Shown here one piece after another: positions 9,966 to 47,970 of a stretch of 64,000 bases of DNA. Origin of the DNA: Escherichia coli (lineage in GTDB: Bacteria; Pseudomonadota; Gammaproteobacteria; Enterobacterales; Enterobacteriaceae); NCBI RefSeq assembly GCF_003334335.1, contig NZ_QOWQ01000011.1, one strand, 5' to 3'. Position numbers and translations under genes: made by a program. The notes below the pieces were generated by a model. That model did not search any database. It was not told the origin of the DNA and saw only the letters and a list, made by a program, of their open reading frames with translations. The first letter of the stretch is position 1; every line of letters starts with the position of its first letter.

Positions 9966-10062
9966 TTAAATTCTAAAATAATCACGAAAAAAATTTTACT
10001 TCCGCCTCATGCGGCGAATGTGGGAATTGCCCAGGCGGCGGGGGATAGGGGCTGGAGACAGT

Positions 10063-10085
10063 TATCCACTATTCCTGTGGATAAC
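10063..10085. promoter_or_regulatory. Inverted pair of DnaA boxes upstream of uvrB
   Basis: TTATCCACT ... TGTGGATAA; the second is a perfect match to the DnaA box consensus TTATCCACA on the opposite strand. Confidence 0.55.
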
Positions 10086-44122: not shown

Positions 44123-44190
44123 ATGGCCCCGGAGCGGGTTTGCGCCCCTCACCCTAATCCTCTCCCCATAGGGGAGAGGGAACTGCCAGT
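44123..44190. repeat. GC-rich palindromic intergenic element between glnH and glnP
   Basis: GGCCCCGGAGCGGGTTTGCGCCCCTCACCCTAATCCTCTCCCCATAGGGGAGAGGG, with inverted repeat CCTCTCCCC/GGGGAGAGG. Confidence 0.5.
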
Positions 44191-44212
44191 GCGTTTTACA
44201 GGTGTAGCGTTA

Positions 44213-44974
<762 letters not shown>

Positions 44975-45011
44975 CTATCCACGGGACGATCCCCTGCGTG
45001 ACATTCACATA

Positions 45012-45029
45012 TATGAAAAAATCGTGCCA
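45012..45029 (-). promoter_or_regulatory. Sigma54-type promoter (glnHp2-like)
   Basis: The minus strand reads TGGCACGATTTTTTCAT (-24 GG / -12 region) about 60 bp upstream of the glnH start. Confidence 0.55.
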
Positions 45030-45362
45030 GTTTTGCAACTCCTTGATTTTTCGAGATGCGGCAAAAACGTGATGCACGATTTATAGGGCAATACCCTGAA
45101 GATGCACCATTCTGGGGCACCAATCTGGTGCGCTAAAATTGTGCACTCAACACAGTGATTATTTAGCGTAAAACCTGATGAAAAAACAATCTTTATGTAA
45201 CGATTGTGTGATGATGTGGATACAAAAAATTTACTTAATCAGCTGGAGATAGCAGATGGATGCACTAAATAAGTGCGTTGAGGTGGGCTGCAAAACAAAA
45301 CGGCCTCCTGTCAGGAAGCCGCTTTTATCGGGTACTAAAGTTCTGCACCATCAGCGATGGAT

Positions 45363-46010
<648 letters not shown>

Positions 46011-46126
46011 TTAGATATATTGATAAGAACAATTCTTATTTATCTGCTCGCCAGGAATTTTCGGAATAAATATGCTTTTGCATAATTCGATATATAAAGA
46101 CGGTGTAGAGGAAAAGTAGCGAGAAA

Positions 46127-46156
46127 TTCTGCATGGTTATGCATAACCATGCAGAA
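46127..46156. terminator. Perfect 30-bp palindrome directly downstream of rhtA (candidate terminator or binding site)
   Basis: TTCTGCATGGTTATGCATAACCATGCAGAA is its own reverse complement. Confidence 0.4.
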
Positions 46157-46164
46157 ATGTAAAT

Positions 46165-47052
46165 TTAATTAATGTCTAATTCTTTTATTTTGCTCTCTTT
46201 GCGTACTGTCAGCGTAGACCCCATTGAAGCGGCGATGATAGCGCCGAGCGCCAGTAGCTGTATGGGTGTCAGTGTTTCTCCGAGGAAAATCATCCCGGAA
46301 ACGGCAGCCAGCGCCGGTTCCATGCTCATCAGCGTACCAAATGTCCGTGTTGGCAAACGGGTGAGGGCAATCATTTCCAGCGAATAAGGCAGAGCGGTCG
46401 AGAGAATAGCGACAGCCAGACCCAATGGAATAACCGACCAGTGCCAGAGTGCTTCACCAGCCTGAAGCGCTCCAATTGGCACGAAAATTAACGCTGCAAT
46501 CAACGAACCAATTGCCACCGTCGCAGGGCCATGTTCCGCTCCTGCGCGTTGCCCACTTAAAATGTAAATAGCCCAACAAGCCCCGGCCCCCAGTGCCAGC
46601 GCACAGCCGGTTAAATCGACATGGGAAACGTCTTGCCCCAGCGGTAGCAGGAACCACAGACCAAGAACCGCCAGCACAACCCAGACGAAATCTACCGGGC
46701 GACGAGAAGAGAACAGCGCCACCGCCAGTGGTCCGGTGAACTCCAGCGCCACCGCAATACCCAGCGGTACTGTCTGAATAGAAAGATAAAAAAGATAATT
46801 CATCCCACCCAGCGAAACGCCGTAAAACAACAGCGGTAACCGTTGCTCTTTGGCAAAGCGCAGTCGCCATGGCTTAAAGAACGCGATGAGGATCAGCGTT
46901 CCTAATGCCAGACGCAGCGCAGTGACACCCGGTGCGCCCACCAGAGGAAAAAGTGACTTAGCTAACGAGGCTCCACCCTGAATAGACGCCATGGCAACGA
47001 GCAATATGACTATTGGTAACCAGACCGGCATTTTACGTAATGAACCAGGCAT
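46165..47052 (-). CDS. rhtA: Threonine/homoserine exporter (DMT superfamily)
   Basis: Start set at MPGSLRKMPVWLPIVILL (295 aa). Confidence 0.92.
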   Translation of the reverse strand: MPGSLRKMPVWLPIVILLVAMASIQGGASLAKSLFPLVGAPGVTALRLALGTLILIAFFKPWRLRFAKEQRLPLLFYGVSLGGMNYLFYLSIQTVPLGIAVALEFTGPLAVALFSSRRPVDFVWVVLAVLGLWFLLPLGQDVSHVDLTGCALALGAGACWAIYILSGQRAGAEHGPATVAIGSLIAALIFVPIGALQAGEALWHWSVIPLGLAVAILSTALPYSLEMIALTRLPTRTFGTLMSMEPALAAVSGMIFLGETLTPIQLLALGAIIAASMGSTLTVRKESKIKELDIN

Positions 47053-47404
47053 CCTTTCTCCCACAAATATCTAGACTTAAGTAAAGCGTGGAGTGTACTG
47101 GATATACCCAATGCTGGTTGAGCATTTGTTGAAAAAATTTTCCCCCGTTTTGACTAAAATGCGCCAGGATTGATGGAATCATTAGTCTGGTGATTAGGAA
47201 TAATCTGGATGAATGACAGGGAAAACATGCGTAATACTTACGCAGTTCTCTGAAAAAGTGATTTAAATTTAGATGGATAGCGGTGTATGGAAACGTTCTG
47301 TTACATGAAATGGCCCGTTAGACATCACAAATCGCGAAGAGTTTCCCATTAATTTTTGATATATTTAAAACTTAGGACTTATTTGAATCACATTTGAGGT
47401 GGTT

Positions 47405-47935: not shown

Positions 47936-47970
47936 AAAAAATCCGCCTCTCGGGGCGGATTTTTGTTTTT
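47936..47970. terminator. Rho-independent terminator after ompX (bidirectional, shared with the opgE 3' end)
   Basis: AAAAATCCGCCTCTCGGGGCGGATTTTTGTTTTT: GC-rich hairpin flanked by an A-run and a T-run. Confidence 0.85.

Follow-up and report, generated by a model that had tools for sequence, protein, structure and literature searches.

A perfect 30-bp palindrome between rhtA and dps of Escherichia coli is best explained as a 3'-UTR stem-loop of rhtA

Introduction

In E. coli, transcript 3' ends that depend on Rho have been shown to carry a stable stem-loop with reduced U content, no upstream A-tract and a mild excess of C over G downstream (Dar and Sorek 2018, NAR 46:6797, PMC6061677). The stem-loops of this class protect the RNA from PNPase and RNase II (Dar and Sorek 2018, PMC6061677). 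The stem-loop predicted from the palindrome described here shares these features, since it is stable, lies just past the rhtA reading frame without a preceding A-tract and is followed by sequence with a reduced U content and more C than G. Across about 70 species, the hairpin tails are not enriched in U relative to the rest of the spacer, as in the Rho-dependent class, with the K-12 allele borderline because its tail begins with UUU. The short UUU(C)U tract of the K-12 tail sets the element apart from that class and makes it intermediate with intrinsic terminators.

Intrinsic terminators are the second system with which this locus may be compared, and those of dps and ompX lie within the same window, as the whole 64-kb stretch of analysed DNA is called below. 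Like them, the rhtA hairpin is encoded on the coding strand past the stop codon and has a comparable predicted stability (-18.7 versus about -20 kcal/mol). Unlike them, it has an A-U-rich stem base, with G-C pairs at 5 of 13 positions, and a U-tract that is short, interrupted and not conserved, whereas the dps terminator combines a G-C-rich stem with a following UUUUGUUUUG. The element also recalls the REP and BIME sequences in being an extragenic palindrome of the 3' UTR whose hairpin may block 3' exonucleases. However, REPs form a multi-copy family with a shared consensus, and the 30-mer studied here is found at a single locus. It also bears no resemblance to the REP consensus.

The same physical sequence has already entered the literature from the side of the DNA. 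A '30 bp inverted repeat' upstream of dps, situated inside a footprint of the Dps protein, is described in Melekhov 2015 (PMC4433220) and Antipov 2017 (PMC5553809), where it is treated as a DNA structural target of Dps in the dps upstream region. In this work, DNase I protection by Dps is placed at 216-281 bp from Pdps, with the inverted repeat in a central position, and Antipov et al. 2017 (PMC5553809) speculate that Dps, by interacting with the repeat, influences the topology of the promoter. The repeat is also shown in Fig. 1C of Melekhov et al. 2015 (PMC4433220), who report only a few protected bands at a 5-fold excess of Dps and weaker binding of Dps to the distal, repeat-bearing fragment than to the promoter-proximal one. 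The retrieved text of the two papers does not relate the repeat to rhtA, and the words 'rhtA' and 'terminator' each occur zero times in Melekhov et al. 2015 (PMC4433220). In contrast to the DNA target of the Dps papers, the comparative data presented here point to selection acting on an RNA hairpin that belongs to rhtA.

The palindrome and its gene context

The sequence TTCTGCATGGTTATGCATAACCATGCAGAA is identical to its own reverse complement over 30 bp and consists of two 15-nt arms that are 100% complementary, with a spacer of 0 nt and ATGCAT at the centre. The first-pass annotation had reported this palindrome, with the same centre, at 46127-46156 of the window; recomputation reproduced it exactly and revealed no hand-counting error. 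The symmetry ends at 30 bp because the flanking bases, A and A, cannot pair. All other perfect palindromes in the 64-kb window have arms of at most 6 nt, and when the window was shuffled 200 times under a first-order Markov model, the longest arms measured 7-11 nt; chance can therefore be excluded as the origin of the 15-nt arms.

The window around the palindrome corresponds to the glnH-dps-rhtA-ompX region of the E. coli K-12 type, and its DNA is 100% identical to that of many complete E. coli genomes. Addition of 803045 converts a window coordinate into that of MG1655 (NC_000913.3), which places the palindrome at 849172-849201. Its location between rhtA and dps was borne out, as both genes lie on the minus strand and their coordinates agree (Table 1). 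The earlier distances likewise hold: the palindrome, said to lie 9 bp downstream of rhtA, begins at the ninth nucleotide after the stop codon, with 8 nt between, and the stated distance of about 260 bp to the dps start corresponds to 260 nt between the palindrome and the ATG. A consensus scan of positions 45200-47300 found no sigma-70-like promoter, and an Rfam search of positions 45000-47400 at permissive thresholds returned no match at the palindrome.

Table 1. Positions of the features discussed in the text, in window coordinates
Feature	Position	Strand	Basis or remark
Inverted repeat with 9-bp arms	10061..10085		GTTATCCAC-N7-GTGGATAAC
Element downstream of glnH	44159..44179		CCTCTCCCCATAGGGGAGAGG then ATTAGGGTGAGGGG; in ORF 44123-44623 (+)
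dps terminator	45290..45372	-	G-C-rich hairpin followed by UUUUGUUUUG
dps coding sequence, downstream neighbour	45363..45866	-	ORF listing and RefSeq annotation of identical DNA
dps proximal promoter and 5' UTR	45867..45985	-	second conserved island of the rhtA-dps spacer (18-species alignment)
C-rich, G-poor, poorly conserved spacer 3' of the hairpin; candidate Rho-loading (rut-like) region	46047..46117	-	composition
Tail directly 3' of the hairpin, UUUCUCGCU, with a short imperfect U-tract	46118..46126	-	sequence
Palindrome	46127..46156	-	perfect inverted repeat; covariation in 45 species
rhtA stop codon	46165..46167	-	
rhtA coding sequence, threonine/homoserine exporter	46165..47052	-	ORF listing and RefSeq annotation of identical DNA
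Hairpin after ompX	47937..47964	+	AAAAATCCGCC-TCTCGG-GGCGGATTTTT; symmetric, flanked by A5/T5

Among 5426 complete E. coli genomes, 5366 match at least 29 contiguous nucleotides of the 30-mer with 100% identity, and BLAST against complete E. coli genomes places the 30-mer at one locus per genome; the two places reported for each genome arise because the palindrome matches on both strands. The exact K-12 50-mer around the palindrome is found in 4077 of the 5426 genomes, and 1293 more carry it with one or two differences, so that about a quarter of E. coli genomes depart from the K-12 50-mer.

The predicted hairpin, its tail and its alleles

In the rhtA-sense RNA the palindrome is predicted to fold into a 13-bp stem, UUCUGCAUGGUUA / UAACCAUGCAGAA, closed by a UGCA tetraloop. 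The minimum free energy of this fold is -18.7 kcal/mol (z = -6.45), and none of 200 shuffled sequences folds equally well. G-C pairs make up 5 of the 13 positions, and the three basal pairs are U-A, U-A and C-G. On the rhtA strand the hairpin is followed by UUUCUCGCUACUUUUCC; the opposite strand would form the same stem, followed by AUGUAAAUUU.

The K-12 tail, UUUCUCGC, contains four T in its first eight nucleotides. A consensus terminator scan, which requires five T among the first eight tail positions, made no call at the palindrome in K-12, and the site was missed because only four of these bases are T; the minority E. coli allele with UUUUCUCG would therefore pass this rule. By a TransTermHP-style tail score, the K-12 tail (-3.97) is among the best in the species compared, but it is weaker than that of the dps terminator (-5.08), as is the tail of the minority allele. 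Over 70 species the mean tail score is -2.5, versus -2.31 for the background of other positions in the same spacers, and the U-tract after the hairpin is not conserved; it is lacking or not kept in most hairpin-bearing species, including E. albertii and other Escherichia. The first 10 nt past the stem in the 70 species comprise 31% T and 33% C. Further downstream, the first 40 nt past the hairpin contain 12 C and 3 G in K-12 and average 25% C and 11% G in the 70 species, with C exceeding G in 62 of the 70 loci; this skew extends over about 160 nt of AT-rich spacer and is therefore no specific proof of a rut site.

The alleles of E. coli differ at the base of the stem. The K-12 allele, GAAUUUCU, reads CAGAA/TTTCTCGC at this point. 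In all four variant genomes examined, the outermost A is replaced by T, which shortens the palindrome to 28 bp and extends the following T run to TTTT. This common variant reads CAGA/TTTTCTCGC, provides four U and has the tail UUUUCUCGC; the B2-type allele is GAUUUUCU. A rarer allele, CAGAAAT/TCTTGC (GAAAUUCU), forms a perfect palindrome of 34 bp and was found in one other E. coli lineage (L003). Judging from these sequences, the stem-base alleles should differ in their efficiency of intrinsic termination, and the K-12 tail and the minority UUUU allele are both compatible with partial intrinsic termination.

In E. coli tcmA_3 (NZ_CP059835.1, approximately 1072431-1072445) the sequence diverges 5 nt past the rhtA hairpin, at about window position 46121, into GGTGATGCTGCCAAC. 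This sequence presumably represents a terminal inverted repeat of IS1, which would place an insertion sequence inside the rhtA-dps spacer. One of the genome matches to the window is also split within the rhtA-dps spacer.

In the Term-seq tables of Adams et al. 2021, which contain ends for dps, ompX and glnH but none for rhtA, the minus-strand ends fall at 848340, 848673 and 848852, and no other follows before ompX; no minus-strand end is thus given between dps and rhtA. The expression of rhtA is probably too low for an end to be called there, and the missing end is to be read as absence of evidence. The TERMITe supplements and the terminator-prediction paper contain no match to an rhtA 3' end either, and literature searches combining rhtA with terminator and rhtA with dps returned nothing relevant to the palindrome.

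These data bear on the proposal that the palindrome is a canonical, efficient Rho-independent terminator that ends rhtA alone, with neither Rho nor exonuclease trimming. A stable hairpin at the ninth nucleotide past the stop codon, a K-12 tail that begins with UUU and scores better than almost all of its orthologues, and the presence of UUUUCUCG in all four sampled variant genomes are what such a terminator would lead one to expect, yet the K-12 allele escapes the consensus scan, its stem base is rich in A-U pairs, and the U-tract is not conserved among the species that bear the hairpin. By comparison, the dps terminator has a far more canonical form, and the rhtA 3' end does not appear in the Adams 2021 tables. 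A purely intrinsic terminator is possible for E. coli, but it leaves the conserved feature unexplained, and as a full account of the element it seems rather unlikely. The suggestion of the first-pass annotation that the palindrome could be the rhtA terminator thus stands in one respect: position, compensatory changes, a variable loop and sense-strand G.U pairs (see below) support an RNA hairpin associated with the 3' end of rhtA. Its intrinsic component is not borne out to the same extent, given the lack of a call in the scan and of a conserved U-tract.

Conservation of the hairpin in the Enterobacteriaceae

A Dps-anchored scan with one genome per species yielded 80 loci, in 77 of which rhtA lies directly upstream of dps. 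About 70 of these 77 syntenic loci carry a strong hairpin that starts 1-16 nt past the rhtA stop codon. The distance from the hairpin to the dps ATG is far more variable and spans 178-359 nt (240-274 in most genera, 178-205 in Klebsiella and Raoultella, and 359 in one Buttiauxella). With its place by the stop codon kept and its distance to dps variable, the element appears to be tied to the rhtA transcript. An alignment of the whole spacer from 18 species contains only two conserved islands, namely the hairpin arms and the proximal 110-120 nt or so of the dps promoter and 5' UTR.

The sequence of the stem varies among genera. Escherichia, Citrobacter, Salmonella and Enterobacter share the arms TTCTGCATGG/CCATGCAGAA, while the arms read TTTAGCATGG/CCATGCTGAA in Phytobacter, TTTGGCATGAG/CTTATGCCAAA in Kosakonia, TTTACCGTGG/CCACGGTAAA in Buttiauxella and TTTAATGCGG/CCGCATTAAA in Cedecea; Raoultella and Klebsiella have still different stems. 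In an alignment of 45 species, 93.7% of the cells of a 12-pair helix are paired, compared with 30-44% in controls that shift the 3' partners by 1-3 columns. Both sides have changed at 11 of the 12 pairs, with 96 compensatory cells in total, and none of 500 column shuffles attains the observed pairing or covariation score. RNAalifold independently predicts the same helix. The pattern indicates that selection is acting on the pairing of the hairpin.

The loops are less constrained. They measure 3-13 nt, differ even among close relatives and are not palindromic outside Escherichia, the only genus in which the symmetry lacks a spacer and centres on ATGCAT; in Citrobacter sedlakii the loop differs by one nucleotide (GGTT-TGCAT-AACC). 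The perfect symmetry that makes the E. coli sequence conspicuous is without special meaning, because the UGCA tetraloop of Escherichia happens to be self-complementary.

Compensatory change would be expected for a DNA cruciform as well, so that covariation alone does not separate RNA from DNA. The wobble pairs offer a test of the strand: in the 10 core pairs, 14 G.U cells occur on the rhtA-sense strand versus 3 A.C cells, which correspond to G.U on the other strand. This bias corresponds to about 10 independent events against 3, with a one-sided binomial p of about 0.05. The sense-strand hairpin is, in addition, more stable than the antisense one in most loci outside Escherichia. Together with the position of the element, these results favour selection at the level of the RNA over selection on DNA, be it duplex or cruciform, with the strand test being only marginal.

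The hairpin is absent in five species with a conserved dps promoter, two of Pseudocitrobacter and three of Trabulsiella. The rhtA-dps spacer measures 115-130 nt in these two genera, and the end of rhtA directly adjoins the conserved core promoter of dps. Such spacers are a natural deletion of the hairpin, and the element is therefore dispensable in some backgrounds. An RhtA homologue with 63% identity (L089/L090) still precedes dps; here a different small hairpin starts 18 nt past the stop codon, and the spacer to dps is 142 nt long. Other distant RhtA-like loci (L091-L093) proved uninformative, as they encode EamA paralogues in an operon or a convergent pair, in unrelated contexts, and a search for RhtA homologues returned only close relatives (at least 82% identity) and added nothing. 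Dps or RhtA sequences 85-97% identical to those of E. coli were also encountered in 'Marinobacter sp. BW6' (703-bp contig), 'Streptomyces polyasparticus' (573-bp contig) and 'Vagococcus sp. WN89Y' (RhtA); these three non-enterobacterial assemblies most likely carry enterobacterial contamination.

DNA-level readings of the palindrome

A role of the palindrome as DNA has been considered in several forms. In the first, a cruciform or bent inverted repeat would be bound by Dps or another architectural protein and would modulate promoter topology and the autoregulation of dps, along the lines suggested by Antipov et al. 2017. A perfect palindrome without a spacer has the best geometry for cruciform extrusion, and the palindrome strand folded as DNA reaches -13.3 kcal/mol. 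The published work also describes, besides the DNase I protection of the repeat by Dps, a Dps ChIP-seq signal at the dps locus in two experiments and a 1.5-fold decrease of a dps-promoter reporter in a dps-null strain. However, the footprint comprises a few bands, seen only at a 5- to 10-fold excess of protein, and the distal fragment is the weaker binder. Against a cruciform, the spacer-less symmetry is found in Escherichia only, other genera having asymmetric loops of 3-13 nt. Wobble pairs count as mismatches in DNA, and it is preferentially the rhtA-sense strand that tolerates them. What is kept, moreover, is the distance from the element to the rhtA stop codon and not that to dps, and the species that lack the hairpin retain the conserved dps promoter. 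A DNA-level function of this kind is consequently regarded as quite improbable.

A dual-purpose element would combine the two roles. The hairpin would end the rhtA message, and the spacer-less palindrome of Escherichia, 30-34 bp in length, would extrude as a cruciform under the supercoiling of stationary phase or stress and be bound by Dps, thereby coupling the state of the nucleoid to the topology of the dps promoter in a positive autoregulation. If this were true, the strong conservation of the arms in four genera would reflect protein contact in addition to RNA pairing; such a combination is very improbable.

The first-pass annotation had alternatively proposed a binding site for a dimeric regulator in the upstream region of dps, and an operator at which a sequence-specific, dimeric transcription factor acts on dps or rhtA would indeed account for the perfect dyad symmetry, for three TGCA motifs placed 10 bp apart and for the near invariance of the arms TTCTGCATG / CATGCAGAA in Escherichia, Citrobacter, Salmonella and Enterobacter. 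The proposal nevertheless fails on the comparison among species. The conserved arms (..CATGG / CCATG..) stand 8, 9 or 10 nt apart in the genera Citrobacter, Enterobacter and Escherichia, and this distance varies more among distant genera. Genera such as Buttiauxella and Cedecea have exchanged the arm sequence by compensatory changes, so that pairing and not sequence is kept. The ATGCAT centre, too, is specific to one lineage. With about 220-250 bp between it and the dps start site, the element is situated upstream of the Fis and IHF sites, which published work places within about 120 bp of the dps promoter. Its position relative to that promoter is not fixed, given a distance to dps of 178-359 nt, and the promoter is retained without the hairpin in five species. 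The literature searched reports no factor bound at the palindrome, and the weak in vitro protection by Dps concerns a nucleoid protein rather than a sequence-specific dimeric regulator. An operator thus appears extremely improbable, and the claim of a regulator site for dps is not supported.

An origin from a repeat family, either REP or the end of a mobile element, was rejected because the 30-mer occurs at one locus per genome. LexA-box, sigma-54 and NsrR-like readings were presumably inapplicable as well, since the palindrome does not match the spacing or symmetry of these sites and its centre varies among species.

Other features of the window

Several further elements in the window may be noted in their own right. 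The dps terminator coincides with a strong published Term-seq 3' end at MG1655 848340; sub-threshold Rfam matches at this terminator (ctRNA_p42d, 26.9 bits; STnc70, 19.2 bits) look like chance matches to its hairpin. The symmetric hairpin after ompX is, by its sequence, typical of a bidirectional intrinsic terminator between the convergent genes ompX and opgE, and 3' ends have been published for it at MG1655 851007-851011.

The inverted repeat with 9-bp arms corresponds by offset to approximately MG1655 813106-813130. Each of its arms resembles a DnaA box, TTATCCACA. The element downstream of glnH resembles a BoxC-type extragenic repeat. An 'orphan' Term-seq 3' end has been published on the minus strand right at this element, at MG1655 847200.

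Conclusions

The palindrome between rhtA and dps is real, non-random and already present in the literature, and the best explanation for it is an ordinary RNA hairpin at the end of the rhtA gene. In the reading that we consider likely, it encodes a stem-loop in the rhtA 3' UTR that defines and protects the 3' end of the mRNA, with a mixed route of termination and an insulated dps promoter. RNA polymerase leaving rhtA would transcribe the palindrome, and the nascent RNA would fold into the predicted 13-bp hairpin, with covariation in support of its pairing. Some intrinsic termination at the hairpin is probably added in E. coli by the short U run, UUUCU or UUUUCU, which would release part of the polymerases. 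Polymerases that read through would presumably be stopped by Rho loading on the untranslated, C-rich and G-poor spacer, as its composition suggests. By analogy with the transcripts of Dar and Sorek 2018, 3'-to-5' exonucleases may then trim the RNA to the base of the hairpin and leave a defined, protected rhtA 3' end. The net result would be a stable rhtA message and a stress-regulated dps promoter shielded from upstream read-through.

If this reading is right, rhtA gains a defined 3' end, in the form of a terminator or a protective stem-loop, which would be of little import beyond annotation. The 30-bp inverted repeat of the Dps literature would then be mainly an RNA element of rhtA, which calls for caution in experiments that use a long dps upstream fragment as a model of Dps binding to inverted repeats. 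For the Enterobacteriaceae, the locus offers a clean, textbook-style case of a gene-end hairpin kept by compensatory evolution across the family without a conserved U-tract, and it would fit the view that many enterobacterial mRNA ends arise by Rho termination followed by trimming to a hairpin.
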